A stretch of DNA of 64,000 bases from a virus. The position numbers were made by a program, and so were the translations under genes. The notes under the pieces were generated by a model, which searched no databases, had not been told where the DNA came from, and worked only from the letters and a program-made list of their open reading frames with translations. The stretch lies in the IMG/VR virus record IMGVR_UViG_3300043399_000509. One strand, given 5' to 3'. Position 1 is the first letter of the stretch; each line of letters begins with the position of its first letter. This document shows, one piece after another, positions 1,536-18,026 of the stretch.

Positions 1536-4084
1536 TACGAAAAGAAATCCTCCAGACTTGCTACTTTCTCAGTCTTCCAACCAATGCAATCAAGAATGAT
1601 TTTTAGTGGTTCAAGAAAACTCTTTTCAAACTGTGTATTATAGTCGATATACTTCTTTATGTCAAGGTCTTCTGGTATTGCCTGCGGAAATGATATCACA
1701 TTGCTTCTAATCGTGTTTGGCTCTTTTAGATAGATGAACTTGATCTTATCGGCATCCTTGATTAATGGATATTTCTTGGTTAGTTTCTTGGATTTGATGA
1801 GGTTATTATAAACAATAGACCCCCGAACATGAATAGGTGTACCCTTGGCATATGATCCAGTTTTATTGTCAGTATATGTATCAATACCGTTCACACCACG
1901 AGGAAACGCAATCTGGTCTTCTGGTAGATTAGTAAACTCTTTCCTAAAGGACTCAATGAACTCAATCATTTCATCTTCTGTCTTGGATAGCATAAAATCA
2001 ACAGAAGCAAGCAACTTTTCACGACAGGCTGAAGGTGTGGAACTTTTGATCATTTCAAGTCCCATAATCTTTACCTTGGGCTTTGTATATTCCACACCTT
2101 CGTTGTTGTATACATTTAGAATGTATCGTTTCTTTGCCGTCCAAATTCCTTTGTCCGCCAAGGCTTCTCGCTTCATAATCATCTTCTGTGCTAACGCATT
2201 AGTATATTCAGCAAGCTCATTATAAGACTTGTCAATATACGGCTGAATCTTATTTTCACAGACCTTATCCAAGAATGCGATAGTTTGTTTTGTTCCAGAA
2301 GACGGATTTGATGTAAGTACAGTTTTGCACACCAAGTCATCAAGAGATAGGTAAATTGAGTCAGTATCTGAGGCAATTACATAGTCCTTGTTAGATGATC
2401 CTAACACTCTATTTAGATAATCATTTAGTTTCTTTTCAATCCACCGAATAGCCAACTGACCAGATGTGGTAATGGCTGATGCCTGACGAACATCAAAGAA
2501 CCTGAAATATTGATTTCCCAAAGCACCATAGGCTGAGTTTAGACAAACTTTCTTAGCCAACTGGAGATTGTTGAAACGAGCGATTCTCTTTTCAATCTCG
2601 ATTCTCTTTTCTTTATCAGTTTCTTTTTCAAGTTCCTTCTTTGCTTCAATCGCTTTTTCTTTATACTTCGATCTGTCATTATACATAGTCTCCATAATAT
2701 GGGCAAGAAATCCCTGACCATCCACCTTGAACAACTGTCCATTTGGTGTGAGAGTAACACCAAGTTCTTTCAGGGCTCTTGTATCAACTTCTTTGTTGAG
2801 CATAGAATCAATGCTAATATTCTGCGAAATGATTTTACGCATTTCATTTGTGTAGTTTTCAGGCTCAATAAACTTGTCTGGACTAATATTGAACTGCATA
2901 ATCAAATGTGGATAAAGCGAGTTCAAGTCAAAGCTTGCCACCCAATTATGTAATCCAACCATAGGGTCTTTGACATATGCACCAACATATGCTTCATCCT
3001 TATCGTGTGATGTGATAGGAGGTAGAACCTTATGGTCTTTTCTTAGTTCATTGAAAATGATATTATCCCACATACGAACCTGGGCGAACACATCATCATA
3101 GTTTGATTTGCTGTCATATGCCAGAGTAAGAGCAAGGTCGATAAGCTTTAGTTTGTCGTCCAGCTTATCAACAAGCTCAACGTCACGAATATTATACTCA
3201 ATAAACTTTTGAAAATCTTCTTTGTATAGATTGTGCAGGTTACCGTATTCAGCATAGGATAACTTACGCTCACCAAGTTCTTCGTGGCAGATATGGTCTA
3301 ACTTATATGACTCTTGTGGTTTGAGAACAAATTTCTTATAGAGTTCAATATAATCCAGTGTACCAATACCCAGGAGAGAGTACGCAATCTGTTCCTTGCC
3401 CATAATATATGTGGTACGGTTTGTAACCTTATGCCAGGGAGAAAGTCTGTTCGCCTGTGTTTCACCAAGTATCTTTGTGATACGATTGATAAGATATGGA
3501 ATATCGAAGAACTTGATGTTCCATCCAGTTACAATATCTGGATAGTTCAAAGTCCAACGATCTAGGAATCTTTTGATGAGATCAATCTCGTCACTACATC
3601 TAACATATGTAACATCAGCACGATTATTAACAAACTCACCGCAGCCATATACAAAAATACCATCATGCATCCGGCAAGTAATAGCAGTAATAGATTCATT
3701 AGCCAATCCCGGATCAGGGAAGCCGTTTTCACTACCCACTTCGATATCGATGTTAGCAACATGTATTAAATTCTTATCCCAGTCTACATACGCATCTGCG
3801 TATAAATCAGAAATATACGCATACTCGTATTTTTGGTTTCCATAGACTTTGAAGTTGTCTACGTCCTTGTATTTATTGATAAAATCACGACAATCCCTGA
3901 TTGTCCCAGGCTTGATGCTGGACATATACTCACCAGAGATTGTCGTGTACTTTGTTGGTGTGTTAGTTCGTAGAAAAAAAGTTGGATGATAGTCCAACTT
4001 CTTCATTACTTTTCTACCGTTCTCAACCCCTCTATACAATATTTTAGAACCGTAGACTTGTACGTTAGTATAGAAGGATTGCAT
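1535..4084 (-). CDS. gp43: Family B DNA polymerase (T4 gp43)
   Basis: ExoI DIEV, SFDLNSLYPH, KVCLNSAYG, SDTDS and KKRY motifs; C-terminal clamp-binding peptide SLEDFFS. Confidence 0.98.
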   Translation of the reverse strand: MQSFYTNVQVYGSKILYRGVENGRKVMKKLDYHPTFFLRTNTPTKYTTISGEYMSSIKPGTIRDCRDFINKYKDVDNFKVYGNQKYEYAYISDLYADAYVDWDKNLIHVANIDIEVGSENGFPDPGLANESITAITCRMHDGIFVYGCGEFVNNRADVTYVRCSDEIDLIKRFLDRWTLNYPDIVTGWNIKFFDIPYLINRITKILGETQANRLSPWHKVTNRTTYIMGKEQIAYSLLGIGTLDYIELYKKFVLKPQESYKLDHICHEELGERKLSYAEYGNLHNLYKEDFQKFIEYNIRDVELVDKLDDKLKLIDLALTLAYDSKSNYDDVFAQVRMWDNIIFNELRKDHKVLPPITSHDKDEAYVGAYVKDPMVGLHNWVASFDLNSLYPHLIMQFNISPDKFIEPENYTNEMRKIISQNISIDSMLNKEVDTRALKELGVTLTPNGQLFKVDGQGFLAHIMETMYNDRSKYKEKAIEAKKELEKETDKEKRIEIEKRIARFNNLQLAKKVCLNSAYGALGNQYFRFFDVRQASAITTSGQLAIRWIEKKLNDYLNRVLGSSNKDYVIASDTDSIYLSLDDLVCKTVLTSNPSSGTKQTIAFLDKVCENKIQPYIDKSYNELAEYTNALAQKMIMKREALADKGIWTAKKRYILNVYNNEGVEYTKPKVKIMGLEMIKSSTPSACREKLLASVDFMLSKTEDEMIEFIESFRKEFTNLPEDQIAFPRGVNGIDTYTDNKTGSYAKGTPIHVRGSIVYNNLIKSKKLTKKYPLIKDADKIKFIYLKEPNTIRSNVISFPQAIPEDLDIKKYIDYNTQFEKSFLEPLKIILDCIGWKTEKVASLEDFFS

Positions 4085-4104
4085 TTTTCACCTTTTTGTA
4101 AAGA

Positions 4105-4416
4105 TTAGTCTGGCATCATAATCTTGGATGATGGCATTACAATACCACCAAAAATTGAGTTATACTGGTTGATAAACTCTTGAATAGGCTTCATTATAAG
4201 CAAAATATGATCTTTATCAAGGGTAAACTCTTTCTCATCAGAGAACTCAGCCCAAGGAGCAAGACCTACTGTTGGAGTCTTTGGATCAGCCTTACTAGGA
4301 ACAATGGCAATCCTAACCGGATTCTTAATCTTTAAGAAATTGCCACCATCCATAGTAACTTCAGTCAAAATTTCTTCAGTGTTTATTAACTTCAATAATC
4401 TAATGTCTAGTGCCAT
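4105..4416 (-). CDS. Conserved T4-like hypothetical protein (possible Sm-like beta fold)
   Basis: IRLLKLINTEEIL...KNPVRI...GLAPW...FINQYNSIFGGIV pattern; typical position upstream of gp43. Confidence 0.7.
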   Translation of the reverse strand: MALDIRLLKLINTEEILTEVTMDGGNFLKIKNPVRIAIVPSKADPKTPTVGLAPWAEFSDEKEFTLDKDHILLIMKPIQEFINQYNSIFGGIVMPSSKIMMPD

Positions 4417-4419
4417 ATA

Positions 4420-4626
4420 TTATACCTCTTCCATAACAAAGTCATATACACCAATAGTCATCCACTTTTCAGGAATCAGAGTCACCTTTGATCCTGATTC
4501 ATTCTGGTAGGTGTATGCATTTTCTCTATCCATAATCTTCACAATCTTCTCCCAGCGGCCATCAAATGCACGCTGGACCAATTGTGTTTCAAGGATTTCA
4601 CTTACAAGCATCCAATTTTCCTCCAA
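4420..4626 (-). CDS. Hypothetical protein
   Basis: 68-aa ORF tightly packed in the operon; start codon uncertain. Confidence 0.55.
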   Translation of the reverse strand: MEENWMLVSEILETQLVQRAFDGRWEKIVKIMDRENAYTYQNESGSKVTLIPEKWMTIGVYDFVMEEV

Positions 4627-4804
4627 TAAAGGCTTTCACTTCTTCATATTCATTACTAACATCCTGAACAGAACCATTGTTAAACCTTATGGTAAGGCTA
4701 CCAGGATTGTTTACTGATTGTGATATGCTAGTAATATGGTACTTATTGATTAGTATATACGATCCATCCACCCTTGTCAACTCAACAAAGTTGCTCATGT
4801 TCAC
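4598..4804 (-). CDS. FlbD/SwrD-like small protein
   Basis: FVELTRVDGSYILINKYHITSI...TIRFNNG...VSNEYEEV resembles the FlbD family pattern. Confidence 0.5.
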   Translation of the reverse strand: MNMSNFVELTRVDGSYILINKYHITSISQSVNNPGSLTIRFNNGSVQDVSNEYEEVKAFIGGKLDACK

Positions 4805-4971
4805 TTCTTTTTCCTTGGTGCTGCTGGTTTCTTTGTGGTTGATTGCTTCTTAACAAACTCAGGAACAATTGTCTGTTCTTCAGTTGGCTTGACTTCAATA
4901 TTCTCAACGGCTTCCTTTGCCTTTATCAGCCCTACTCCAATATAGTCCTTTACCTTATCCCAAAACGACAT
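4801..4971 (-). CDS. Hypothetical 56-aa protein with basic tail (not in ORF track)
   Basis: MSFWDKVKDYIGVGLIKAKEAVENIEVKPTEEQTIVPEFVKKQSTTKKPAAPRKKK; fills the gap and overlaps both neighbours. Confidence 0.6.
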   Translation of the reverse strand: MSFWDKVKDYIGVGLIKAKEAVENIEVKPTEEQTIVPEFVKKQSTTKKPAAPRKKK

Positions 4972-5839
4972 TTACTTTCTCCTTTATCTCTTTATATAAT
5001 TGTTGCTCACCCGAATATGTGATAAACTTATAATCACACTTTGTAGGTATATTGTATATATGGCAATCCTGTGGATTAGCACCAAAACAAATCATTTTTT
5101 TATTTGGGTCATTCACATTATCATCAATTAGACTAAACACAAAAGGTCCTGAACTTTTTCCAATAATCACATCACAAAATTTAGAAAGATATGCAATCTC
5201 ATTTAGATCAAAATCTTTCCTTTGATTTATATTATCTGTGAAGAATACATTTTGATTGTTAGAAATAAACTTATGTGTTGCAATAAAAATAACATTTGGA
5301 TTTTCATCAGCCATATGATTTATCATATCGGCCATGTTACCATTATACTGACATTGACCAGAAAGGCCAGGACCATTACTCAGTAGAACCTTCTTTTTAT
5401 CTTTATGAGTTTCTAAGAATGTGTCTTGTAATGAATGATCTAATTTATCAAAGTTGATTGTTAGTTTGTATTCATCAATATCCTTGATTTTTAGATTTGT
5501 TCCAAGATCATTATTCAAAGACTTATAGATTAGATCATACATCTTGTGCATAAAAAGAAGATTACATGCAGCTTCCTTTTCAAAGAAACTGAAATATGAT
5601 CCTACCCAAGTATTGATAAAAACTGCTGTATTGGTTGCGGCCAACTTACCATTTTGACCTAGAGGGAAGTTATTCCCAAATGATAATGGCTCACAATCAA
5701 TATCAAAAAGCACCTTTGGGCTATTGAAATGTGCATAGAAATACTTACCCTCTAGTTGGGACATAATGTCTTTTATAAAGGGTTTACTGAGAAACACATC
5801 ACCATTATGATAATGATTGAAGAATATAATATCCTTCAC
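4955..5839 (-). CDS. Putative glycosyltransferase (GT-B, GT9-like)
   Basis: N-terminal HNGDVF and C-terminal DLNEIAYLSKFCDVIIGKSSGP resemble GT9 motifs; lies in the sugar island. Confidence 0.55.
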   Translation of the reverse strand: MKDIIFFNHYHNGDVFLSKPFIKDIMSQLEGKYFYAHFNSPKVLFDIDCEPLSFGNNFPLGQNGKLAATNTAVFINTWVGSYFSFFEKEAACNLLFMHKMYDLIYKSLNNDLGTNLKIKDIDEYKLTINFDKLDHSLQDTFLETHKDKKKVLLSNGPGLSGQCQYNGNMADMINHMADENPNVIFIATHKFISNNQNVFFTDNINQRKDFDLNEIAYLSKFCDVIIGKSSGPFVFSLIDDNVNDPNKKMICFGANPQDCHIYNIPTKCDYKFITYSGEQQLYKEIKEKVNVVLG

Positions 5840-6183
5840 TGCTGAACACCCCTATAAATCTTTACTGAGTCTTCACGCAACGATCTACCCTTTGCAATAG
5901 AGTCATCAACAAGTAGATTGATTGCCTGTACAAGATTTGGCCGCTTCACCTTGAAGCAAATATCCAGCTTTCGCTTGATGTCTGCAACCTCACTGTCTGA
6001 CTTGGCTTCCTGAATGATATCTTCTAACATCCAGGTTCGAATGTGGAGAATGACAAGCTTTTCAATAATCTCTCCCAAGTTATCCGTCTTCACATATTCA
6101 ATCTCATTTGGGAGGTCTTGTTGAGATAAAATCTCATTTACCTTGTCTTTGATCAAGAAGTCAATCATTTCAGCAAAATCCAT
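5836..6183 (-). CDS. DUF4254-like protein
   Basis: DNLGEIIEKLVILHIRTWMLED...KRKLD...KRPNLVQAIN; this family is usually found beside glycosyltransferases. Confidence 0.6.
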   Translation of the reverse strand: MDFAEMIDFLIKDKVNEILSQQDLPNEIEYVKTDNLGEIIEKLVILHIRTWMLEDIIQEAKSDSEVADIKRKLDICFKVKRPNLVQAINLLVDDSIAKGRSLREDSVKIYRGVQQ

Positions 6184-6184
6184 T

Positions 6185-7348
6185 TTATAGTTCTCCTATA
6201 ATCTTATCTAATAGTTTTATATCGCTTTCTGTCACAAACTGATTATTCCCCACATATATGCCATTGCTATGAATGATATCAGCATTTGGAAACTGTGTTA
6301 GGTCAGTTACAAAATCTTTCAAGTATGGTTGCTTCAATAGATTTCCTGCAACGATAGGTCTATATTCAATATTATTCTCATTTAGCTTATTTGTCAATAT
6401 CTTTTTTGTGTCCTGGTTGCGACAAATAATAGGGAAACAGAAACTACTGTTGTTTGGGTGGTAATAGACTGGATATATTTTATCTGTATGTTTTGTCATG
6501 GCCAGATAAAATTCCATGTATCTTTTTCTTCTATTGTTGATAAATCCATCCAGTTTTTGAATTTGAGATAAACCAAGAACAGCAGCAATTTCTGTATTTC
6601 TAAAGTTATATCCATCTGTTACGAACAAGAAAGATGGTTCAATACCAGGGTTTTCTTTTTGAATGTCCTCAAAGTTATTAGAAAATCTGGACAAACCGTG
6701 TGATCTTTTCATCAACATCAAATCATACAACTTATCATTGTCGGTACAAACCATACCGCCTTCAATAGTTGACATGTGATGTCCAAAGTAGAAACTAAAG
6801 GTAGCACCTTGTGAGTTTGCTCCTACTCTATAACCATCCAAAGTTCTGGCACCATGAGATTCACATACATCATCCAAGAAGATAGCCTTTGGGAATATCT
6901 TCTTATATAGGCTTATATTAGCAGGAATGCCTAAAAGATGTGTGGTAAATACTATCTTGATATCAGGATGTTCTTCTGCAATCCTCTCCATATGATCAGC
7001 ATCAAAACTAAAATGTTTGAGACTTACATCACAGAATATTGGTGTGAATCCCAACTGAAATACAGGATTGATATTTGTAACCCAAGTACAGGCCGGAACA
7101 AGAACCTTATCACCATCCTTTAGTGAATAAAGTTCCTTGATAGCAGCCAATAAAAGAAAGTTGGCAGAGCTTCCAGAAGTCACAAAGACGGCATGTTTAC
7201 ACCCAAGCCAATAAGACCAAGCTTTCTCAAACTCCTCAACCTTTGGTCCTTGAGTAAACTTATTAGATTTCAAAACAAACTTGGCCAAGTTCCATCTGTC
7301 ACAGAAGGTTAGTGTATCCTTCATCAAAGGCCATTTATACTCTTTCAT
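6185..7348 (-). CDS. colD: PLP-dependent DegT-family enzyme, ColD-like GDP-4-keto-6-deoxymannose 3-dehydratase
   Basis: SGSSANFL, DDVCESHGA, FSFYFGHHMSTIEGG (His in place of the Schiff-base Lys), GYNFR and IEYRPIVAGN; adjacent to gmd and fcl. Confidence 0.75.
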   Translation of the reverse strand: MKEYKWPLMKDTLTFCDRWNLAKFVLKSNKFTQGPKVEEFEKAWSYWLGCKHAVFVTSGSSANFLLLAAIKELYSLKDGDKVLVPACTWVTNINPVFQLGFTPIFCDVSLKHFSFDADHMERIAEEHPDIKIVFTTHLLGIPANISLYKKIFPKAIFLDDVCESHGARTLDGYRVGANSQGATFSFYFGHHMSTIEGGMVCTDNDKLYDLMLMKRSHGLSRFSNNFEDIQKENPGIEPSFLFVTDGYNFRNTEIAAVLGLSQIQKLDGFINNRRKRYMEFYLAMTKHTDKIYPVYYHPNNSSFCFPIICRNQDTKKILTNKLNENNIEYRPIVAGNLLKQPYLKDFVTDLTQFPNADIIHSNGIYVGNNQFVTESDIKLLDKIIGEL

Positions 7349-8279
7349 ATGTATTCCTATTCTCTAAAAACCAATCAATTGTTGTCTTCAGGCCATCTTC
7401 AAGTGATGTCTTGGCTTTCCAACCCATAGCATCAAGCTTTGATGTGTCCAGTGCTCTGCGTGGAGTTCCATTAGGCTTTGATGTGTCCCAGACAATATTT
7501 CCTGTATAACCAACCAAACCAGCAATCATTTCAGCGAGTTCTTTGATTGAGATTTCTCTATTTGGACCAATGTTGATGATTTCTGGATCATCATATTTTT
7601 CCATGAGGAAGATGCTGGCATCAGCCATATCATCAGCATATAGAAACTCTCTGGTTGGTGTGCCGTCACCGAAGCAAATGACCTCAGGATCGTTATTCTC
7701 TTTTGCAGCAATGAAACGATTGATAAAGCTTGGAATGACATGGCATTGATTGACCCGGAAGTTATCATTGATACCATAAAGATTGTTGGGCATCACAGAT
7801 ACAGTCTTTAGCCCATACTGTTCTGTGTACTTCTTACACATAATGTAACCAGCAATCTTGGCAATGGAATAACTGATATTAGTTTCTTCCAACGGACCAG
7901 TCATCAAATATTCTTCCTTGATAGGAACAGGAGCAAGCTTGGGATAGATACAGGCTGAACCTAAGAACAAAAGTTTTCTTGCACCTTTGATTAGTGATGC
8001 ATCAATAATATTAGTCTGTATTAGTAGATTTTCACGAATGAAATCTGCTGGATTAGATTTGTTATAACCGATACCACCAACCTTGGCAGCGGCCAAGAAG
8101 ACATACTTGGGTTTATGATAGTCAAAGAAGTCATACACACGATCCTGATCTGTCAAATCAAGATACTTATGATCCATCGTGATAATGTTATCATAACCCT
8201 TTTGTTTTAGCTGCCTGACAAGTGCGGACCCAACCAAGCCTCTATGTCCTGCCACATATATTTTATCATTACTTTTCAT
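7335..8279 (-). CDS. fcl: GDP-L-fucose synthase / ColC-like epimerase-reductase
   Basis: GHRGLVGSA, LAAAKVGGI, FLGSACIYP, YSIAK, PNNLYG and GDGTPTREF motifs; start taken at MKSNDK. Confidence 0.93.
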   Translation of the reverse strand: MKSNDKIYVAGHRGLVGSALVRQLKQKGYDNIITMDHKYLDLTDQDRVYDFFDYHKPKYVFLAAAKVGGIGYNKSNPADFIRENLLIQTNIIDASLIKGARKLLFLGSACIYPKLAPVPIKEEYLMTGPLEETNISYSIAKIAGYIMCKKYTEQYGLKTVSVMPNNLYGINDNFRVNQCHVIPSFINRFIAAKENNDPEVICFGDGTPTREFLYADDMADASIFLMEKYDDPEIINIGPNREISIKELAEMIAGLVGYTGNIVWDTSKPNGTPRRALDTSKLDAMGWKAKTSLEDGLKTTIDWFLENRNTYERV

Positions 8280-8412
8280 CAAGGGCCTCATTCAAAAACT
8301 TTTGTATTTCCTGTAACTGCTTTCTATAATAATCTTGAACATAACCATCATTATATCCACTTTTCATTTCTGTGATCATTTTTCTAATCTCATATTCAAC
8401 ACTATTGTCCAT
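8269..8412 (-). CDS. Hypothetical 47-aa protein
   Basis: [47 protein letters not shown]; bridges gmd and fcl with short overlaps. Confidence 0.55.
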
Positions 8413-9406
8413 GAATAACCATATCCTCCACAAGTTGCTTGAATGTATGCTTTGGTTTCCAACCAAGAACTTTGTGGGCTTTGGACGCATCACCAAGAAG
8501 ACTTTCAACTTCAGCAGGTCTAAAATACTTGGGGTCAACACGAACTATTTCTTTACCTGTTCGCTTATCAATACCAACCTCATTCAAACCTTCGCCCTTC
8601 CATTCAATAAACATACCAAAGTATGGAGATGCTTCTTCCACAAACTGACGAACAGAATATTGTTCTCCGGTTGCGATGACATAATCATCTGGCTTATTTT
8701 GCTGGAGCATCAACCACATTGCTTCCACGAAGTCCTTGGCATGACCCCAATCTCGTTTGGCATTTAGATTACCAAGATAGAGACAATCCTGTCTGCCACT
8801 TGAAATTTGTGACAGACCACGAATGATCTTGCGTGTCACAAAGGTTTCACCACGACGAGGGCTTTCATGATTGAATAGAATGCCGGATGAGGCGTGCATA
8901 TTATATGCTTCACGGTAGTTCTTTACAATCCAGAAGCCATAAATCTTGGCAACACCATATGGTGATCGTGGATAGAAAGGTGTTGTTTCTTTCTGGGGTG
9001 TTTCCTGAACCAAACCATAAAGTTCTGATGTGGATGCCTGATAGAAGCGAGTATATTTTTCAAGCCCAAGAAGCCGGATTGCTTCAAGCATTCGTAACGT
9101 TCCAACAGCATCAACCTGTGCTGTATACTCAGGCATTTCAAACGATACCTTGACGTGAGATTGTGCACCAAGGTTATATACTTCATCGGGACGAGTCTCA
9201 CGCATAATACGAATAAGATTAGATGAGTCTGTCAAATCACCATAATGAAGCTTCAGTCTTGGGTAAATATGATCGATACGATCTGTGTTGATAAGTGATG
9301 CTCGCCGCACAATACCATGAACTTCATATCCTTTGGAGAGGAGCAGTTCAGCCAAATAAGAGCCATCCTGTCCAGTGATACCTGTAATCAATGCTACTTT
9401 ATTCAT
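8402..9406 (-). CDS. gmd: GDP-mannose 4,6-dehydratase
   Basis: [62 protein letters not shown] and RDWGHA. Confidence 0.97.
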
Positions 9407-9408
9407 AA

Positions 9409-10437
9409 TCAATCCTTCAATAACAAGTTCAGTTTATCTGAGTTTCTTTCAATGTTTATGGCTTCACATGTTGGGAATGGATTTGATGATGCAAAATCAT
9501 TGATAATGATGCGTCGGGCATGGTTCACATCCATTACCAAATCACAATCTCCAAAACCAAGGTCTTTCAGCATCTTATATGTCACATTTCTATATTGTGA
9601 AGGTCGGGCTGTCATAAACACAATCTTACATCCCCTACTCATATACTTATGAAGCGTCTCAACATTCTTTTGAATGGGGGTATATTGTTGTCTGTAATAG
9701 GAGTTCTTACCATGTGAACTTTGATTGTAGCACACAACACCATCCAGATCACATACTATAGTAGGTCTGTCATTGAAAGTCAACCATTCCTTTAATGTTC
9801 CAACATTTACATAGTTTGTAACAGTAGATGTTGTGAAAATATGTCCCTGAGAAATCATGTATCCAATGATATTTGATATAAAGAGTTCTTTACCAAAATC
9901 TTTTAGATTTTCATAGGCTTTCTTATATTCATCAACAGATGCAAACTGATATCCACCAACACAGAAGGTATCAGACACAACTTGCTTTTCTACAATATTA
10001 GTGATTGTACCCTGATCATTTTGAATGATATAACTCAAGGCAGCAACACCAGCAAGATTCATATTGTCTGTCAATGTAGATGTATAAACAACATTACCCT
10101 CAACTGTCTGCATATCAAAGAAACTATCACAGTCTCTTACCATGAATGGTCCTGTAATATCGGTTCGTAGTAAGGCTTGATAAACAGTTTCAGCAGGTCC
10201 GCTGGTGGGTGTTTCAAGAATGATGATGTCCACAATATCTCCCAAACAATCCAGAATGATCTGTTCGGCATCATACATCTTTACATGTTCTCTCAAAAGA
10301 ACAATGTGAATCTTACCCGGAGTTTTCATCAAAGCCCGTTCAACCATAAGCTTCTTTGAATAATCTGTTAGAAGATACTTTGGTCTCATGCCAGGAAATC
10401 TACTTGAAAGCCCAGCACACGGAACAATCACATCCAT
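9409..10437 (-). CDS. Sugar nucleotidyltransferase fused to a HAD phosphatase
   Basis: N-terminal [12 protein letters not shown]...PKYLL; C-terminal HAD motifs CDLDGV, FMTAR and IINDF. Confidence 0.8.
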
Positions 10438-11162
10438 AGTTTATTTACCTCATTTATAATATATTGTTTATCAAAATCATTTTTGCAATAGGGCAGAACC
10501 CTTAGTAACATTAGAATATTCATTTCATTTGTAATATTAATATATTGTAATGCTTGACGGATGACTAATAGTTTTTCTTCCGCTTTGTATTTTTCATGAC
10601 GAACAAACCATTTACAAATCAAATCCTGATTTAGTTTTGCCAAATCAAATACAATCGAATCATATTCACTTGTAATCAAATCAATGAAAACAAACCTATC
10701 GGCTTTCATATCGTAAAGAATGTTTTCTAATGTCAAATCTCCCAGATACTTGGTACTGAATACCATCCTTGGTAGTCTATCAATCAACATTTTTTTGGTA
10801 AATGGAAAGCTCCCAAAATCAATGTTTTCAAGTTTTTGATGATATGTTTGTGTGTAATCCTTGAACTGCCCATCATACAATAATGTATCAATGCTGTCAA
10901 GAAAAAAGTCTATAAGTTTATCTGGATTGTTATATGATAGATATGTTTTCATATCAAGCCCATGAATATATTCCATATCTAGTATATCACCAGATACCGA
11001 ATAAATCTTTGGTACATTTACAATACCAGAAAGGGATTGAAGTCTTTCAACATTTCTGGCAACATTACCTATCTTACGAACAAATAGTTTTTCACTGTCC
11101 TGTATAAGATAGACTTTGCTGCCAGAATGTCCTTGTAGTTCCTTTATTACTTTTTCTTCCAT
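10428..11162 (-). CDS. APH/choline-kinase-like phosphotransferase
   Basis: GHSG loop, VPKIY, MEYIHG, GDLTLENIL, FIDL and FDLAKL. Confidence 0.75.
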   Translation of the reverse strand: MEEKVIKELQGHSGSKVYLIQDSEKLFVRKIGNVARNVERLQSLSGIVNVPKIYSVSGDILDMEYIHGLDMKTYLSYNNPDKLIDFFLDSIDTLLYDGQFKDYTQTYHQKLENIDFGSFPFTKKMLIDRLPRMVFSTKYLGDLTLENILYDMKADRFVFIDLITSEYDSIVFDLAKLNQDLICKWFVRHEKYKAEEKLLVIRQALQYINITNEMNILMLLRVLPYCKNDFDKQYIINEVNKLWM

Positions 11163-11854
11163 AGGGGCATATCATCACGAATCAAACTATGTGGTGTTCC
11201 ATTATATAACCCTGGTGGAAACGGATTTTTCATATCAACATATATTAATCTTTCACCAACCAAACCATTATGGTGTAGATTAGCAGACATCATTTCTTCA
11301 CCATTCATTTGATATCCAATCTTATAATACGTCTCCATGTTGATATATGTAGACATGTACTGATTCATAACATACGACGAACCAAATGCAAACTGATCAT
11401 TTCCAAAGTCACGGGAGGGCACCATACGGCAGTTTGGAATGTATATTTTTGTTGGGTCTAGTTGATCAAATGGAATAGAAGAATTCAAAGCATAATCAAA
11501 TCTAGTTTTCACAACCCAATCATACTGCTGTGTCTTTACCTCATGGTCAATCTTATACAGACAGGATCGAAACATTGAATAATAGGCATATGCTGAACTT
11601 GATGCTGGAAACTTTACTGCATCAGGTGTGCGAGTATATTTGTTGTTTAGAACCTGTGAAAACACAAAGTATTCTTCTTCAACACCCTTTACTGGTTTAT
11701 ATAGATCAAATACATCATTGTTGTCATACACACCATTTTTCCAGGTGTGAATGAAAATATCACAATCATGATGATCAAGAAGATTTCGTTTTAGATATTC
11801 ATAACCTTGCTTATAGGCTCTGGGCTGACCAGAAATACATACCGCTATTCTCAT
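11147..11854 (-). CDS. Putative glycosyltransferase-like protein
   Basis: MRIAVCISGQPR...DIFIHTW...YDWVVKTRFD...NDQFAFG pattern seen in polysaccharide loci. Confidence 0.55.
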   Translation of the reverse strand: MRIAVCISGQPRAYKQGYEYLKRNLLDHHDCDIFIHTWKNGVYDNNDVFDLYKPVKGVEEEYFVFSQVLNNKYTRTPDAVKFPASSSAYAYYSMFRSCLYKIDHEVKTQQYDWVVKTRFDYALNSSIPFDQLDPTKIYIPNCRMVPSRDFGNDQFAFGSSYVMNQYMSTYINMETYYKIGYQMNGEEMMSANLHHNGLVGERLIYVDMKNPFPPGLYNGTPHSLIRDDMPLWKKK

Positions 11855-12717
11855 ATCACACCTTTATAAACATTATTCATAAACCATTTACTAAATCTAT
11901 TTGTATCGAGTTTATTATTTCTAGGATTTAGTACAGGCTTGTTCAACATATCATTATACTTATCATCGTTTTTATCAAGGTCTATGATAAAATCAATCAT
12001 GTCTTCATCACTATCAAAATCATGTCGATTGATAAATGCATCTGGATTGAAATCTATTTCTACTGTTGGACTTCCCCAATAGATTGGAATAGTTGAGCAG
12101 TATAATGCATGAAATATCTTCTCTGTCACATAACCAGGATATGATGAGTTCTCATAGCAAATATTGAACTTATGCTGTGCTAGAAAATGGAACTTGGATT
12201 TTTGAGCATTGATTCCATCTCTTGGTAGTACAAACCCTACATTGTTGAAAAGTGGTCCTCCACTATTCACTCTCTTATAGTTCGATATCCTATGAAAGAT
12301 ATTATTTCTTTCTTGACATCCACCATTAGCAACCACAAAACTACAAAACTGTTTTTGGTCAGTAGAATATAGTCTGCCCTGTCTAATATCAGGCAATCCA
12401 ATCTTCTTTAGATGAACCCAGTTATCCAATACATACAAAGGAAGTCTATAATGCCTTGAATCTTCCATATGATCAAAAGACAAGAAGAAATCGGCATTAT
12501 AGTTCCAAGGTCTTCGATTTTCACCTGTAAAGAATATCTTCACACAGTTATTATATTTTAGATTACTTTGACCAAAGGTTTCATCAGCAAAGATGAGATA
12601 TTCTGGATTCACATCATCTCTAACAATATCAAATGCTGAGGATAGAGTATCAATAAAGAACTCGTCCATTGTTGGAAAGTAGTCTGTGAATCCAAGTTTT
12701 AGTAATGGCTTTGTCAT
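11851..12717 (-). CDS. GT10 alpha-1,3/4-fucosyltransferase-like protein
   Basis: FFTGEN, FCSFVVAN, VNSGG and KFNICYENSSYPGYVTEKI...IPIYWG (GT10 motif). Confidence 0.9.
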   Translation of the reverse strand: MTKPLLKLGFTDYFPTMDEFFIDTLSSAFDIVRDDVNPEYLIFADETFGQSNLKYNNCVKIFFTGENRRPWNYNADFFLSFDHMEDSRHYRLPLYVLDNWVHLKKIGLPDIRQGRLYSTDQKQFCSFVVANGGCQERNNIFHRISNYKRVNSGGPLFNNVGFVLPRDGINAQKSKFHFLAQHKFNICYENSSYPGYVTEKIFHALYCSTIPIYWGSPTVEIDFNPDAFINRHDFDSDEDMIDFIIDLDKNDDKYNDMLNKPVLNPRNNKLDTNRFSKWFMNNVYKGVI

Positions 12718-13331
12718 ACTGTGTATACCGCATCTCTACCATGAATCATTATCTGCAACTTGTAACCTTTACTGTGTAGAAAACTATCAATGTCTGGTGT
12801 TGGGTCTTCTATTGTAATAACTGGTTTGTATTCATTGATTATGTTCTCTGCTCCATATAGGATATTCATCTCATATCCTTCAGTATCCAAAGCAATAAGA
12901 TCACATGAAGCCAAACACAAATCATCAATACGATATGTCGGTAGAAAAGATGATTCGGTTGGTCTTACAATGTTCATACCTTTGTTGTGTGCATTTGTTC
13001 TAAACACCTCAACAAGACCATTGGACTTTCCCAATGCACCTTGTGCCTTGATAACATTATCAGTTTGACAGTTCAATGTCAAACAAAAAAAGTTTAGTGG
13101 GTCTGGTTCAAAGGTATAGACAGTATCAAATGATTCGGCAAGTAATCTGGGGAATACTCCACAATAACCCCCAGCCTGAATAGCAACCCCTTTATTTTTT
13201 ACAAGTCTACTCCATACAGTGTTATATGCATCAAACCCTTCAAGGATTGATTCAAATGCAGTATCACCAATAATCTTCAACCATCGACGCTCACCGATAG
13301 TAACATTCTCAACCTGTTCTGCATATGACAT
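12714..13331 (-). CDS. FkbM-family methyltransferase
   Basis: IQAGGYCG, YTFEP, RIDDL and LIALDTEGYE. Confidence 0.85.
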   Translation of the reverse strand: MSYAEQVENVTIGERRWLKIIGDTAFESILEGFDAYNTVWSRLVKNKGVAIQAGGYCGVFPRLLAESFDTVYTFEPDPLNFFCLTLNCQTDNVIKAQGALGKSNGLVEVFRTNAHNKGMNIVRPTESSFLPTYRIDDLCLASCDLIALDTEGYEMNILYGAENIINEYKPVITIEDPTPDIDSFLHSKGYKLQIMIHGRDAVYTV

Positions 13332-13334
13332 GTA

Positions 13335-13940
13335 TTATGCCTTCACCCAAAATGAAACCTGATTTTTTGATCGTAGGAGTGGAATACGAATCTTATTTTC
13401 ATCCTTAAAGGATTTGATAGCATCATGGACATGAGGAACATGTGTATCATGTATAAAAATATAACCGCCCGATTTGATCTTGGGATACCAATCTTTTAAG
13501 TCTCGTTTGATACCATCATATGTATGATCCCCATCAAGTAAAACAAAGTCAAGGGACTCTTTACGAGAAGTCATAGCAGCCTTGTGTGAATCCATAACTT
13601 TTAGTTCATAACGATCCTTGTATGGTTCAAGGTTCTTTTCAGCAATAGTCTTATACTGATCCATATCTTCCTGACTTCTTACAGTTTCATAATCAGTATG
13701 GGGTTTATATGAATCAACCCCATATAGCATTTTGATATTTGGACATTCTTCCAGGAGAACATACGAAGATTCACCTTTGAGAACACCCACCTCCACACCA
13801 GTAATATCATCACCACGCATTCTCTTGATATATGGAACCATGGCATAGGCAGATAAGAATGTGAAAGGCCACAGTCCTGCTGACTTACATTCTTCAATAG
13901 AAAAAAACTCTGGATTACCAAGCATATCATACATCTCCAA
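13335..13940 (-). CDS. Class I SAM-dependent methyltransferase (Methyltransf_24-like)
   Basis: GVEVGVLKGES, YGVD, DFVLLDGDHTY and KSGGYIFIHD. Confidence 0.85.
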   Translation of the reverse strand: MEMYDMLGNPEFFSIEECKSAGLWPFTFLSAYAMVPYIKRMRGDDITGVEVGVLKGESSYVLLEECPNIKMLYGVDSYKPHTDYETVRSQEDMDQYKTIAEKNLEPYKDRYELKVMDSHKAAMTSRKESLDFVLLDGDHTYDGIKRDLKDWYPKIKSGGYIFIHDTHVPHVHDAIKSFKDENKIRIPLLRSKNQVSFWVKA

Positions 13941-14829
13941 ACTTTGATTTAATCCTGCTCACGAGTTCTGGAATACGATCCCACTGATGAACAACCACAA
14001 ATGGCTTATCATACTTATTGACGATTGTACCATCCTCTTTTATTGTTGGTTGAGTATCCTCATAGTACATATAATATTTCTTCCAGTTTTCTGGATTGTC
14101 CTTTATCGAACCACCAAGATCACCTGATCCAGCTTCCACAGCCTTTACTGATGTTCCAAGTTGAACTGCCCAGCCATCATCATTGGTTGTAAACCATGTA
14201 TCATTTAGAAATGGTTCTGTATTGATAAGGAAGTTATAAACAGCCTGATCAACAATAGAAATCTGTCGATTTACACTCATTTGGAAAATAAGAAGCATCA
14301 ACCCCTTGACATGCATCACATCTCCGGCAATAACACCAACATTGTTGATCATCTTGGTCTTGAGCTTATCATGGAAATATGGACCAAAGGTATCATAAAG
14401 ATTCTTATTGCCCCAAGGCTCAAACTGATATTGCATACCCTCTGATGATGCAACAAGAGAATGGAAAACCATTCCGTTTTCTAACCATGTGGATGGATTA
14501 TCCTGAAACACAACATCCCTAGTATCTGTTGTAATAACATTTCGATACTTATTACCATGAGTGTTCAAATAGTTCCACAAATAGAAAAATCTCTCGACAT
14601 GAGGAGCACCATTGTTGTGTGCAACCACATCACCATTTTCCTTTTGCTTACCATAAAGAGCAAGTTCAACACCATTCTCTGTAAGTTTATCAATTGTTGC
14701 CTTTGTCATATTTGTACCGACAATAGCAACATCACCAGTAAAGCCAGACTTACGAATAGAGTTTACCCAATACTTGAGTTTATCCCAATCATAACCAACG
14801 GCTGCACCAATAATCAAGTCTTTTTCCAA
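13927..14829 (-). CDS. Putative GT-A glycosyltransferase
   Basis: TTDTRDVVFQ (DxxD), INNVGVIAG, DQAVYNFL and VVHQWDR. Confidence 0.65.
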   Translation of the reverse strand: MEKDLIIGAAVGYDWDKLKYWVNSIRKSGFTGDVAIVGTNMTKATIDKLTENGVELALYGKQKENGDVVAHNNGAPHVERFFYLWNYLNTHGNKYRNVITTDTRDVVFQDNPSTWLENGMVFHSLVASSEGMQYQFEPWGNKNLYDTFGPYFHDKLKTKMINNVGVIAGDVMHVKGLMLLIFQMSVNRQISIVDQAVYNFLINTEPFLNDTWFTTNDDGWAVQLGTSVKAVEAGSGDLGGSIKDNPENWKKYYMYYEDTQPTIKEDGTIVNKYDKPFVVVHQWDRIPELVSRIKSKFGDV

Positions 14830-15563
14830 GGGTATTCTCCATTATGCTTTTGTTTCATTATTTCATTATACTTTGAGAAGATATCAATATCTCCACCATA
14901 TGCTTTATTCATGTCAGGTAGATTGTAGTTTAGAGTATGTAGACCAGTAGTATCATAGTTAGATTGATGTTTAACAAACGTGAAGAACCGGCGATCACCA
15001 CCCCAACCATAATGCCATATTTGGCATACATTTATGAACCATTCCCTTTTGAAGCAATATGATGATGTGTCAACCAGATGCTGAGTACCATCAGACCATG
15101 CTATGGGCCATCTTCCAATAGCCTCACAACAATCATCAGCCAAGTATTCATCGCCAACATATACTTTACGCAAGGAATAGGCAAAGTCAAGTTGTTTTTC
15201 TTCTATTGTATTGACAAGAGATTCAATATGATTTTCATCAAACCAGTTGTCTTCATCCAAAAATGCAATATAATCAGTATTGATTAGGTGTGGAAAAGCT
15301 GCATAGATACGGTGCCCATAGAAACCATTTGATCCCGTATTTTCAGGTAGAGTTGCAAACCGAACATATTCATCTTGGTTTAGATTTCGGGATTGCTCAA
15401 AAATATCTATTGTTTTCTGATAATGATGTGGTCCATCAATAACCAATAGATGATGAATATTTTTATAAGTTTGATTATGTACGCTTTGAATACATTTTAG
15501 TAGTTTATCATTACCAGTTGTTGGTGTTAGAACCGTAACTGACTTTTCTATTTTCAGTTCCAT
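14814..15563 (-). CDS. GT2-family glycosyltransferase
   Basis: VTVLTPT, SVHNQTY, LVIDG and YIAFLDEDN. Confidence 0.85.
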   Translation of the reverse strand: MELKIEKSVTVLTPTTGNDKLLKCIQSVHNQTYKNIHHLLVIDGPHHYQKTIDIFEQSRNLNQDEYVRFATLPENTGSNGFYGHRIYAAFPHLINTDYIAFLDEDNWFDENHIESLVNTIEEKQLDFAYSLRKVYVGDEYLADDCCEAIGRWPIAWSDGTQHLVDTSSYCFKREWFINVCQIWHYGWGGDRRFFTFVKHQSNYDTTGLHTLNYNLPDMNKAYGGDIDIFSKYNEIMKQKHNGEYPWKKT

Positions 15564-15566
15564 ATA

Positions 15567-16133
15567 TTACTCCGCATAGTGTAGGTAAGAACTCAATAAA
15601 AACTTTTCGCCTTTGATGACTGGACAGCCTTTATGTGGAAATAACCACATGGGTGGAAACATAAACACACTACCCTTGTTTGGTTTATTACTAATACCAA
15701 GAAGTGGAAAATCAGTATGACCACCTTCTTCAACATCATTGAGGTACCAGAAGAATACAAGGAATCTTTTGGCTGTTGAGTTGGAAACAGCATCAACATG
15801 AGTATCAAACTCATCAATGCCGTTAGCTTGATAATGCTTTATTCTAAACTCTTCAAAAGCATACTTTTCTGGCCAATAAGTAGTTTCTTCAGGCAAACGA
15901 GATTTATATTCATTGATAAGAGAGAATGACATGCCCATGATATAATCATGTATCACAGGATGAATCATTTGATGTTTGGTTAGATTTAGTTGAGTAAAGT
16001 TGGGTCTGGCTTTTTGATCATATCGTTCATGTAGTTGAGGGTTTGTACGAAACAAAGAAACCATCTCGTCACAAACCCTTGGGTCTAATGTATTATCTTT
16101 TGAGAAACAGAAATCACTCAATATTCTATTCAT
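15567..16133 (-). CDS. 2OG-Fe(II) oxygenase (prolyl-4-hydroxylase-like)
   Basis: HVD...FWYLNDVEEGGHTDF...FPHKG...K triad; start taken at MNRILS. Confidence 0.9.
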   Translation of the reverse strand: MNRILSDFCFSKDNTLDPRVCDEMVSLFRTNPQLHERYDQKARPNFTQLNLTKHQMIHPVIHDYIMGMSFSLINEYKSRLPEETTYWPEKYAFEEFRIKHYQANGIDEFDTHVDAVSNSTAKRFLVFFWYLNDVEEGGHTDFPLLGISNKPNKGSVFMFPPMWLFPHKGCPVIKGEKFLLSSYLHYAE

Positions 16134-16182
16134 AATAAAAAGCCTTTCACAGTCAATAGTATATAGTAATATTTTTACAGTA

Positions 16183-17055
16183 TCATAGTCTGGCGAACTG
16201 GAAATGCATCCAGTCGTAATTCCTTTCAATACCTAGTGAAATAGCACCTTCATCATATACAAATTCCCAGAACTTCTTGTATACTGGTCTTGCTAATGTA
16301 GCATTGCTGCGACCCCATTTCAACTGGTTATTATCAGGATCGATATCAACTGCGATACCCCAGGAATGCATTGACCATGCAGAACCGCCACGCATCTTAC
16401 GAACATTCAATGTGCCGCCCCACATATCAAGGCGAAGCTCACGAATCTTTTCCATACCATAATAATCAAGTGTACGCTGAAAGATTCGCTCCATATTGTC
16501 ATGAACTTTTCTGTGGCAGGACCATGAACGAACAGTTTGCTTTGGTTCCCAAGCAATACGCATTGGATATGGTAGATTTAGAGTTACCTGATTTGACCCA
16601 GGTTTACCATAAAATGATGTACAATCACTTTGTCTTGGCCAGTTTGATGCTGGTGTTTCTTTTACAGGCTTAGCTGTAGGAACAGGGGCAGGAGCAGGCT
16701 TTGCTCTGGCTTCATTGATATCTTCGATTCTATCCCGCCAAGTTGTAGCCAATTGTGCTGTGTATGCTTCTCGGGCATAGTTTGTCTGTGGGCCAACCAA
16801 CCCATCAATGTCTAATCCAGTTGAACCTTGAATCTTCATTGAACGATATACTGCTTGCTCAGCCGCAGTGGTGAGTCTCTTATTATTCCAACCCTTGGTA
16901 TCGATCTTATATGACTTCAATAGACTTTGAATAGCAGCAATTGTTGCCGCATCAATCTTGCCGTTAATATCACCATTATAGTGATTGTCAGCCTTTAGTA
17001 GAATTTGAATAGCAAAGTTGATATTCTCAACATGTTTTATTGTTGTGGTTGTCAT
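16183..17055 (-). CDS. Endolysin: peptidoglycan-binding domain plus M15 peptidase
   Basis: IDGLVGPQT PG-binding motif; RKMRGGSAWSMHSWGIAVD...DWMHFQ M15 Zn motifs. Confidence 0.85.
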   Translation of the reverse strand: MTTTTIKHVENINFAIQILLKADNHYNGDINGKIDAATIAAIQSLLKSYKIDTKGWNNKRLTTAAEQAVYRSMKIQGSTGLDIDGLVGPQTNYAREAYTAQLATTWRDRIEDINEARAKPAPAPVPTAKPVKETPASNWPRQSDCTSFYGKPGSNQVTLNLPYPMRIAWEPKQTVRSWSCHRKVHDNMERIFQRTLDYYGMEKIRELRLDMWGGTLNVRKMRGGSAWSMHSWGIAVDIDPDNNQLKWGRSNATLARPVYKKFWEFVYDEGAISLGIERNYDWMHFQFARL

Positions 17056-17116
17056 TGGCTTTCTTTTTCACTCCGTATGTTATAAATTCCCATTCCTCTA
17101 TAGTGTATGGTAACAT
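17027..17116 (-). CDS. Small 29-aa peptide overlapping the endolysin start
   Basis: AGGAGA RBS followed by MLPYTIEEWEFITYGVKKKANDNHNNKTC. Confidence 0.4.
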   Translation of the reverse strand: MLPYTIEEWEFITYGVKKKANDNHNNKTC

Positions 17117-17141
17117 TTTAGTTCTCCTGATATATATGAGA

Positions 17142-17168
17142 CGAAATAGGCGGGGTTTTACCCCCGCC
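17142..17168 (-). terminator. Probable intrinsic terminator after hsp20 and the lipoprotein
   Basis: GGCGGGG/CCCCGCC 7-bp stem followed by TATTTCG on the minus strand. Confidence 0.65.
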
Positions 17169-17177
17169 CATCTTTAC

Positions 17178-17324
17178 TTACTTTGCTGGCTCAGTCGTTG
17201 CTGGTGCAGTTACAGCAGGAGCATCCTTCTTTTCGGAGTTTCCATTTGTTACATCACCCTGTACCTTACAGGCACCAAGAGCAACAGCAGATAGTGCAGC
17301 AAGTGTAATTGCAAATAGACGCAT
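17178..17324 (-). CDS. Small lipoprotein, 48 aa (not in ORF track)
   Basis: MRLFAITLAALSAVALGA-C-KVQGDVTNGNSEKKDAPAVTAPATTEPAK: signal peptide II with lipobox LGAC; AAAGGA RBS. Confidence 0.75.
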   Translation of the reverse strand: MRLFAITLAALSAVALGACKVQGDVTNGNSEKKDAPAVTAPATTEPAK

Positions 17325-17343
17325 GATATAGTCCTTTCTCATA

Positions 17344-17889: not shown

Positions 17890-17992
17890 TGTTCATACTC
17901 CTTGAATAAGCGAGTTGTTTTTAGTTAGTTATTCTTCCGTTCGGCAAGAATGGGTGTTGGGTACGCAAAACCTTTTTAACCCCAACACCATT
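17890..17992 (-). promoter_or_regulatory. Structured hsp20 5' leader with a ROSE-like RNA thermometer hairpin
   Basis: CUC(G)CUU-auuc-AAGGAG hairpin (17914-17898) masks the SD; two further hairpins lie upstream. Confidence 0.7.
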
Positions 17993-17993
17993 A

Positions 17994-18022: not shown

Positions 18023-18026
18023 GTGG

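Follow-up and report, generated by a model that had tools for sequence, protein, structure and literature searches.

A mosaic island of soluble sugar enzymes with a predicted GDP-L-colitose route in an uncultured T4-like phage

The island described here lies in IMG/VR virus record IMGVR_UViG_3300043399_000509, a sequence of 156,381 bp that has terminal repeats and is rated 100% complete; the window that we analyzed is its 64-kb stretch of bases 92382–156381, and positions given below are those of the window. On the minus strand, 14 co-oriented open reading frames (ORFs; g01 to g14, Table 1) run from 16229 down to 4955, and most of them overlap. According to our analysis, the island likely encodes a route to GDP-L-colitose, consisting of a GDP-mannose 4,6-dehydratase (Gmd), a histidine-type ColD and an enzyme of the GDP-L-fucose synthase family, and this route forms part of a mosaic locus whose modules also occur separately in related phages. 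We tentatively connect it with remodelling of a host envelope glycan.

Junctions between neighbouring genes range from −16 to +3 nt, the sole exception being a gap of 110 nt between the Gmd and Fcl genes (8292–8401), in which a short ATG-started frame runs into the start of g04. A first-pass annotation of the same DNA, made from its letters, had listed about 14 overlapping or coupled genes, their enzyme classes, the lack of flippase, polymerase and ligase, and the lack of any obvious transmembrane (TM) segment, all of which was borne out. Family calls were made with Pfam/NCBIfam, and g01 and g12, which have no Pfam match, were labelled by comparison of AlphaFold2 (AF2) folds; together with profile matches these assignments recovered every class on the list. 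The island proteins showed no flippase, polymerase or ligase families, and none of their 19-residue windows had TM-like hydrophobicity, except for an internal charged stretch in g12. The same annotation had called the island self-contained, which, for all its sugar enzymes and glycosyltransferases (GTs), is true only in part: no enzyme making GDP-mannose was recognized, the canonical NTP_transferase family PF00483 is absent from the complete genome, and genes for carrier initiation and export are lacking, so that host functions or a soluble acceptor would be needed. It had also placed the island next to gp43, and the neighbourhood is right, although an Sm-like gene and three small ORFs (4105–4971) intervene. 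In the whole 156-kb genome, the one GT2 and the two sugar enzymes of the short-chain dehydrogenase/reductase (SDR) type all fall within the island; with no other GT2 or SDR sugar enzyme and no canonical NTP_transferase at all, the island is the phage's only recognizable glycan locus. In comparison with the sister phage L015, dN/dS was 0.03–0.19 wherever dS could be computed, and catalytic motifs are intact. By these measures the genes are functional and under purifying selection, and not in the state of decay that the first pass had named as a possibility.

The case for colitose is carried by three enzymes. The g05 product passes the Gmd equivalog model TIGR01472 (569 bits versus a cut-off of 415), scores 514 bits with PF16363, and shares 97% amino-acid identity with the Gmd of L015 at a dN/dS of 0.034. 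Among solved structures, E. coli ColD (2gms; 196 bits) comes nearest to g03, followed by the CDP-sugar dehydrase E1 (114 bits) and perosamine synthase (89 bits). The GHH of g03 aligns under the SHH of ColD such that its first histidine takes the position of ColD His188, which replaces the Schiff-base lysine and is the residue changed in the deposited H188N and H188K mutant structures; G189, H190 and H191 of g03 are invariant among 22 viral homologues. Judged by these residues, we assign g03 to the true ColD type. The g04 product reached 419 bits with the Fcl equivalog NF047922, below the cut-off of 500, and 314 bits with E. coli GDP-fucose synthase (GFS; 1bsv), S107, C109, Y136, K140 and H179 all being conserved. 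As Gmd and a histidine-type ColD are thus accompanied by a GFS-family enzyme directly beside ColD, a GDP-L-colitose route appears to be present, with GDP-L-colitose as the likely product of Gmd, ColD and g04. GDP-L-fucose is a further likely product, arising by action of g04 on the 4-keto-6-deoxymannose intermediate, and a GT10 is present. GT11, the family of the E. coli O55-type colitosyltransferase, is not among the island proteins; g01 (GT9 fold) and g09 (GT10) are candidate colitosyl- or fucosyltransferases.

The small protein g02, encoded directly after ColD, passes PF14063 only marginally (27.5 bits versus a cut-off of 27), and many of its close relatives carry the PF14063 annotation. 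With a mean column identity of 62% and 35 invariant columns in its family alignment, this DUF4254-like protein is conserved better than any other small protein of the colitose cassette. Its 2377 relatives are unnamed, except for two clusters termed 'predicted phosphoribosyltransferase' by the Joint Genome Institute (JGI). Across 185,579 species genomes, DUF4254-like genes gave three matches, all on contigs of metagenome-assembled genomes and barely scoring with PF14063; these may be binned phage contigs.

Table 1. Island genes and the upstream hairpin, with window coordinates.
Feature	Coordinates	Strand	Description
g01	4955..5839	(-)	294 aa; GT-B glycosyltransferase, GT9-like fold
g02	5836..6183	(-)	115 aa; DUF4254-like small protein
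g03	6185..7348	(-)	387 aa; assigned as ColD-type, pyridoxamine phosphate (PMP)-dependent GDP-4-keto-6-deoxy-D-mannose 3-dehydratase
g04	7335..8291	(-)	318 aa; epimerase/reductase of the GDP-L-fucose synthase family, taken as ColC and/or Fcl
g05	8402..9412	(-)	336 aa; GDP-mannose 4,6-dehydratase (Gmd); likely ATG start 9406
g06	9409..10437	(-)	342 aa; sugar-phosphate nucleotidyltransferase (1-230) + small capless HAD phosphatase (222-342)
g07	10428..11162	(-)	244 aa; small-molecule kinase, APH/choline-kinase/RIO superfamily
g08	11147..11854	(-)	235 aa; DUF7796 protein, family enriched in viruses
g09	11851..12717	(-)	288 aa; GT10 alpha-1,3-fucosyltransferase-family enzyme
g10	12714..13331	(-)	205 aa; FkbM-family methyltransferase
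g11	13335..13940	(-)	201 aa; Methyltransf_24/TylF-type O-methyltransferase
g12	13927..14829	(-)	300 aa; retaining-type GT-A glycosyltransferase, no Pfam family
g13	14814..15563	(-)	249 aa; GT2 glycosyltransferase
g14	15567..16229	(-)	220 aa (188 aa from ATG 16133); P4H-type 2OG-Fe(II) oxygenase
GC-rich hairpin with T-rich tail	17149-17168	(-)	just upstream of lysin gene, after 54-aa ORF with lipobox

In IMG/VR, a relative of ColD was found on at least 406 contigs, and the locus counts given here refer to the best 80 ColD loci. Gmd and a Fcl/ColC-type gene such as g04 adjoin ColD in 77 of these 80 loci, and a DUF4254-like gene stands immediately after ColD in 56, which is to say in every locus having it. 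Taken together, the number of ColD contigs and the frequency of the ColD-DUF4254 arrangement suggest that the colitose route is apparently common, in phages of cyanobacteria as well as of heterotrophs. The gene following DUF4254 varies: a g01-like gene, present in 42–44 of the 80 loci, occupies this position in 33 of the 56, and elsewhere we found an unknown protein of ~230 aa (~20 loci), a second DegT enzyme, a RXYLT1-like GT-B or a GT10. Judged by this variability, DUF4254 is tied to ColD and not to one particular transferase. In the cultured phage S-CAM7, a GT11 directly follows the Gmd-Fcl-ColD triad, and GT11 is the family to which the colitosyltransferase of E. coli O55 belongs. The place behind ColD/DUF4254 thus seems to behave as a transferase slot, although non-transferase or unknown genes occur there too. 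Many loci carry only Gmd-Fcl-ColD-DUF4254, with or without a g01-like gene.

A synteny comparison, which the first-pass annotation had proposed, extended this picture to the island as a whole. Its complete gene order is kept in ~10 contigs from phages with 63–71% gp43 identity, bordered as here by hsp20/dUTPase at one end and by the small ORFs together with the Sm-like gene and gp43 at the other, and Gmd-Fcl-ColD-DUF4254 recurs across uncultured viral contigs. In relatives with 55–57% gp43 identity, hsp20 lies only ~2–4 kb from gp43, meaning that the slot is empty there, and in other close relatives different sugar genes occupy it. In contig L156, g13, g12, g11, g08, g07 and g06 lie across gp43 from this slot, and the ~10 kb retrieved there contain neither Gmd nor ColD. 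Identities to L015 (window 4955–15563 versus L015 888–12382) are uneven, amounting to 97% for Gmd, 86% for g12, 81% for g06, 63% for ColD, 48% for g08 and 38% for g01, at 71% for the backbone protein gp43; evidently, individual genes of the island have moved between phages separately from the backbone. The separate occurrence of modules, the uneven identity and the low dN/dS together identify the island as a genuine, selected mosaic accessory locus composed of at least two mobile modules, which we refer to as A (g13 to g06) and B (g05 to g01).

The oxygenase gene g14, counted as an island member in the first pass, would belong to neither module. Of the 80 ColD loci, a single one yielded a homologue, at 22% identity, and g14 is missing from the sister island of L015, where the lysin gene abuts GT2; with g14 not conserved together with the island, it is doubtful whether it forms part of the glycan line. 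The protein matches PF13640 and phrog_61, is of the prolyl 4-hydroxylase (P4H) type of 2-oxoglutarate (2OG)-dependent oxygenases, and probably starts at ATG 16133 rather than TTG 16229. A Skp1-like scheme, in which g14 would hydroxylate proline ahead of glycosylation, was considered and dropped for the same lack of conservation. Different 2OG oxygenases recur near such islands, never at a fixed position; in L056 (12599–15000) and related loci of sister islands, extra genes behind g01 encode a 2OG-FeII_Oxy_5 oxygenase and an HtrL_YibB-domain protein of 562 aa. A further observation concerns L020, a 159-kb viral contig in which a cyanobacterial-type SLH-OprB porin gene and then PstS (14830–17508) lie downstream of a colitose cassette, the porin gene being two genes away with a 521-aa ORF and a GT25 in between.

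Of the four glycosyltransferases, g01 has no Pfam match even at E ≤ 10, and profile searches against PDB sequences gave no match for g01 or g12. The AF2 model of g01 (pLDDT 92.5) matched 3tov (1e-8), WaaF, WaaC and TibC in Foldseek, with VIA Z scores of 15.5 for both WaaF and 3tov, 14.2 for WaaC and 13.0 for TibC, compared with at most 12.2 for other GT-B enzymes. On the basis of this model, g01 has a GT-B fold that is closest to the GT9 heptosyltransferases. G13, D14, S230 and G231 are invariant in its family; in WaaC and WaaF, the N-terminal GD and the C-terminal SG are the catalytic and the donor-binding motif, respectively. The family comprises 1045 cluster representatives at E ≤ 1e-3, mainly from viral and metagenomic data. 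Genomic linkage points to a GDP-deoxyhexose as the donor of g01 and not to ADP-heptose; genes for heptose or Kdo (3-deoxy-D-manno-oct-2-ulosonic acid) were not recognized in the island, the part of the genome to which this search was confined. Domains resembling g01 also occur in fusion proteins (P0311, P0287, P0326), one of which, with 1151 aa, is joined to GT25, while others carry a domain of ~250 aa homologous to the 521-aa ORF that follows g01 in L020; a Pfam search of nine longer or fused g01-family proteins returned a single match (GT25). For g12, the AF2 model (pLDDT 91.4) matched the GT6 alpha-3GalT/ABO enzymes in Foldseek (2e-9), with LgtC and UGGT lower, and T101, D102, R104 and D105, a TD-RD motif, are invariant in its family; g12 is accordingly modelled as a retaining-type GT-A similar to GT6 alpha-1,3-GalT/ABO. 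The remaining two are recognizable from sequence: g09 matches both GT10 domains (PF18025, 4.6e-17; PF00852, 7.3e-18) and carries YENSSYPGYVTEK, a donor motif of the FENSxxxxYxTEK type, and g13, the single GT2 match in the genome, scores 1e-12 with PF00535 and has a DED motif.

Of the accessory enzymes, g06, g07 and g08 stay together in that both g07 and g08 are always accompanied by the other two. The nucleotidyltransferase (NTase) half of g06 matches NTP_transf_3 weakly (E 0.013) and, by profile, the nucleoside diphosphate (NDP)-sugar pyrophosphorylase 4evw (1.4e-9); the Pfam matches to HAD phosphatases fall at residues 226–298. This NTase-HAD family is mostly viral, 7 phages retain the fusion together with its GLSxRF and DIDG motifs, and phage records gave one distant match, in an uncultured marine virus. 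The g07 product shows weak APH, EcKL and RIO1 matches and weak profile matches to Rio2 and the choline kinase LicA; K30, G141-D142...N147 and D161, the active motifs of APH/choline-kinase-type enzymes, are invariant in its family. For g08, PF25072 (33.9 bits) and phrog_13607 were hit, a profile search for relatives in the PDB returned noise only, and its domain, DUF7796, is also found fused with sulfotransferase or P-loop kinase families (Atlas). The combination of a kinase (g07) with a phosphatase/NTase (g06) would correspond to the logic of an NDP-heptose-type or LicA/LicC-type activation. We also considered a mutase-independent route to GDP-mannose, with g07 as anomeric kinase, the HAD domain of g06 as distal phosphatase and its NTase half completing the route; this fits the gene order but is speculation, and it is weakened by L156, where g06 to g08 occur without Gmd in ~10 kb, and by the fact that no family fixes the substrate. 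The methyltransferases were assigned by PF05050 and TIGR01444 (g10, which within the island clade is present only in L015) and by PF13578 (8.5e-18), PF05711 and a weak RMNT_CmcI match (g11).

From the families, folds, catalytic residues, synteny, mosaicism and selection observed, we infer the sugar products, the pairing of transferases with donors and the acceptor along the following lines. Working together at the cytoplasmic face, the two mobile modules of soluble enzymes would assemble a short oligosaccharide carrying decorations. In module B, Gmd would turn GDP-mannose into GDP-4-keto-6-deoxymannose, the histidine-type ColD would remove the 3-hydroxyl, and g04 would epimerize and reduce the product to GDP-L-colitose, as well as yield GDP-L-fucose from intermediate that ColD left untouched; g01 and g09 might then transfer colitose and/or fucose, with DUF4254 as an unexplained conserved companion of ColD. 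In module A, the GT2 and the retaining GT-A may add hexoses, the FkbM-type and TylF-type enzymes may add O-methyl groups, and the kinase and the NTase-HAD fusion may activate one further residue or substituent, possibly placed by the DUF7796 protein. This agrees with the first-pass view of a cytoplasmic line for a multi-sugar, O-methylated, deoxyhexose-bearing glycan, in that each enzyme class was confirmed, with colitose as the predicted deoxyhexose and probably fucose as well. As acceptor we suggest a lipid-linked glycan of the host envelope, either lipid A-core of the lipooligosaccharide (LOS) type or an undecaprenyl-linked glycan, which host machinery would flip and export. The altered surface of the infected cell might then affect superinfection, adsorption of progeny to infected cells and debris, or grazing. 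Remodelling of a lipopolysaccharide (LPS)/LOS-type host envelope is the role that we tentatively prefer, at a little less than an even chance.

Several observations are in line with such an acceptor. Affinities to LPS-core and LOS assembly are evident in the GT9 fold of g01, in the GT25 and HtrL_YibB proteins of sister islands and in the g01-GT25 fusion, and htrL of E. coli adjoins waaF-waaC. In LPS-core and LOS synthesis, soluble GT9, GT8, GT25 and GT10 enzymes extend lipid A-core, which is flipped by the host's MsbA. As such assembly can do without a dedicated flippase, polymerase or ligase, the absence of these genes, which fits it equally well, does not favour virions, and the first-pass preference for virion proteins as the most plausible target loses this support. 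To our knowledge, colitose occurs in nature only in LPS and related surface glycans. Furthermore, the island is located in the replication/early region, from hsp20/dUTPase to gp43, where the T4-type late-promoter motif TATAAATA is missing. This motif occurs 11 times in the window versus 4.8 expected, ten copies being on the coding strand; the copies span 21714–60900, and none was found between 4000 and 21700, hence none in the island. Copies lie 27–43 nt upstream of the genes for the major head protein (40865–42199), the scaffold protein (42256–43572) and two tail-tube proteins, as well as ~90 nt upstream of a translation-repressor homologue (21211–21621) and a DNA methyltransferase (21936–22883). 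A role at the host surface is also the standard reading for such clusters, adopted without tests (PMC1079782, PMC9602691, PMC12801897).

A number of points weigh against the host envelope as the target. What a lytic phage would gain from altering the surface of a cell that is about to die is not obvious. The sequence link of g01 to GT9 is not significant (hhalign E 0.15 with WaaC and 0.24 with WaaF), and the only segments aligned, HNGDVF of g01 with SMGDVL of WaaC and IIGKSSGP of g01 with IVTNDSGL of WaaF, come with non-significant scores. TibC, which has the GT9 fold (Z 13.0 versus g01), acts on proteins, and other phages have turned LPS-type GTs to use on DNA (10.1101/2023.12.21.572611), so that the acceptor does not follow from affinity to a GT family. 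The homologous cassette of S-CAM7 shares a gene run with a tail-fibre gene and is located ~4.3 kb upstream of the latter. As to timing, the missing late-promoter motif is weak evidence, and a scan of 4000–18200 for sigma70-type promoters and terminators gave counts no higher than in shuffled sequence.

Some of these points would be accommodated by autonomous virion glycosylation, where the same enzymes would place the glycan on capsid, tail or fibre proteins in the cytoplasm, thereby shielding the particle or tuning its adsorption; we consider this a real possibility, if on the improbable side. All enzymes are soluble, genes for export and for a transferase that starts synthesis on a carrier lipid are lacking, TibC, which heptosylates proteins, belongs to the GT9-fold family, the Gmd-Fcl-ColD-GT11 run of S-CAM7 is close to the tail-fibre gene mentioned above, and a lytic phage would gain directly from modifying its own particle. 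The chlorovirus PBCV-1, which encodes Gmd and a GDP-fucose synthase, has methylated deoxy sugars on its capsid protein. Set against this are the position of the island in the replication/early region, with no late-promoter motif and with a terminator hairpin upstream, and the failure to identify any candidate acceptor protein or sequon. In addition, unrelated transferase families are swapped between close relatives, and g01 has fallen to 38% identity where gp43 of the sister phage is at 71%, which is harder to square with a conserved, co-inherited protein acceptor, though compatible with it. The more specific proposal of a virion system of a freshwater-heterotroph T4-like phage, with colitose-capped structural proteins, a core of ColD-DUF4254 plus a variable transferase, and DUF4254 as a new virus-specific component, strikes us as rather unlikely.

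A third explanation would dispense with a single product. Here, the genes would have been acquired independently and would act on other acceptors, for which host capsule, extracellular polysaccharide, S-layer, flagellar glycans and small molecules come into question, or would redirect the host's GDP-mannose pool. In relatives, the modules are indeed found apart from each other and at differing places in the genome, gene-by-gene identity to the sister phage spans 38% to 97%, and many loci have only Gmd-Fcl-ColD-DUF4254, with no recognizable GT within 9.6 kb. However, 13–14 genes are translationally coupled in one orientation, their whole order is kept in ~10 related phages, and a dideoxy sugar nucleotide that is not transferred has no obvious use, which makes this explanation improbable in our view. 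Sugar hypermodification of the phage DNA, with transferases acting on a hydroxylated pyrimidine as in T4, RB69 and TET-associated clusters, is very improbable: LPS-related phage GT-A and GT-B enzymes do glycosylate DNA (10.1101/2023.12.21.572611, PMC13326640) and a 2OG oxygenase adjoins the island, but g14 belongs to the P4H type, not to TET/JBP, and fails to be conserved along with the island, T4 beta-glucosyltransferase is not among the top g01 rows in Foldseek/VIA, and both known routes to a hydroxylated base are lacking (PMC13326640; 10.1101/2023.12.21.572611), as the complete genome has neither a gene of the thymidylate synthase family (PF00303), which includes the synthases for 5-hydroxymethylcytosine (hmC), 5-hydroxymethyluracil (hmU) and 5-hydroxycytosine (5hoC), nor a C5 cytosine methyltransferase (PF00145), the control being positive in both searches.

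The genome surrounding the island has a T4-like myovirus backbone, with gp43 (1535–4084), the major head protein gp23, a scaffold protein and tail tube proteins, and the phage looks strictly lytic. Its sequence matches two freshwater metagenome runs from one sample, probably the one from which it came, and a third run, labelled marine, shares 42% of words; no RNA run is among the matches listed. The nearest cultured phages by gp43 are cyanomyophages, at only ~51% identity, and psbA (PF00124) is absent from the complete genome, whereas the control genome was positive; taken together with the freshwater-labelled runs, this indicates that the phage is probably not a cyanophage and that its host is probably a freshwater heterotroph. 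Between the island and the Sm-like gene lie three small ORFs of 68, 68 and 56 aa (window 4420–4971, minus strand). Small ORF s1 recurs next to gp43 at 50–77% in most close relatives and at 38% in two more distant loci, and s3 has a lysine-rich tail. On the other side, between hsp20 and the M15 endolysin, a 54-aa ORF (17178–17342, minus strand) with a signal peptide and a lipobox (…ALGAC…) could be an o-spanin-like or exclusion lipoprotein. The transcription unit to which the island belongs likely has its upstream limit at the hairpin listed in Table 1.

The island is not of an undescribed kind, contrary to what the first-pass annotation had considered; large aquatic phages were already known to carry similar islands, and reports of 'LPS' clusters in T4-like cyanophages, of untested function, go back to 2005 (PMC1079782, PMC3037559, PMC9602691, PMC12801897). 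One review asks whether such phage sugar clusters are 'stuffer DNA' (PMC3037559). The present island shows such a cluster intact, under purifying selection, and exchanged module by module. It also provides a testable context for two large unnamed families, those of g01 (~1000 clusters) and of the DUF4254-like protein (>2000 proteins). With the triad carried by the cultured phages S-CAM7 and ACG-2014f, the question of the acceptor is open to experiment.

In the cyanomyophages P-SSM2, S-SM2, S-SSM7, S-SCSM1, S-SCSM2R and S-CAM7, an 'LPS'/CWSM block likewise sits in a variable region without export genes and comprises sugar-nucleotide enzymes and soluble GTs, with GT2, GT10, GT11, GT25, Gmd and Fcl as the families. 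The Synechococcus phages S-CAM7 and ACG-2014f have Gmd-Fcl-ColD at 52–53% identity to the island. The present phage differs from the cyanomyophages in the missing psbA, in a gp43 of ~51% identity and in a genome of 156 kb, cluster-bearing cyanophages being said to exceed 200 kb. The DUF4254 gene and g01 are absent from every cultured phage record, and the papers listed by a literature search on colitose and phages dealt with host O-antigens or unrelated topics, with no phage-encoded colitose pathway among them. The GDP-L-colitose pathway of E. coli O55/O111 (Gmd, ColD/WbdK, ColC, GT11) resembles the island in Gmd, in the histidine-type ColD and in the adjacent GFS-family enzyme, whereas the island lacks ManB/ManC, has a GT9-fold and/or GT10 enzyme as candidate transferase instead of GT11, places DUF4254 between ColD and the transferase, and stands in a phage context rather than in an O-antigen locus with wzx/wzy. 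Outer-core loci of LOS and LPS combine WaaC/WaaF (GT9), LgtC/WaaJ (GT8), Lic2A/LgtB (GT25), the FucT of H. pylori (GT10) and LicA/LicC, a similar mix of soluble GTs with a kinase/nucleotidyltransferase pair, and the likeness is one of folds and families only. The capsid glycans of PBCV-1 and the capsid and tail O-glycosylation of mycobacteriophages, both made in the cytoplasm by viral soluble GTs without host export and in PBCV-1 also involving viral Gmd/GMER and methyltransferases, are set apart from the island, which has no link to structural genes, no late motif and no recognized A064R-like enzyme. What is specific here is the combination of a 156-kb T4-like backbone that is probably not a cyanophage's, a ColD-DUF4254 cassette with a variable next gene, and a mosaic of two modules.

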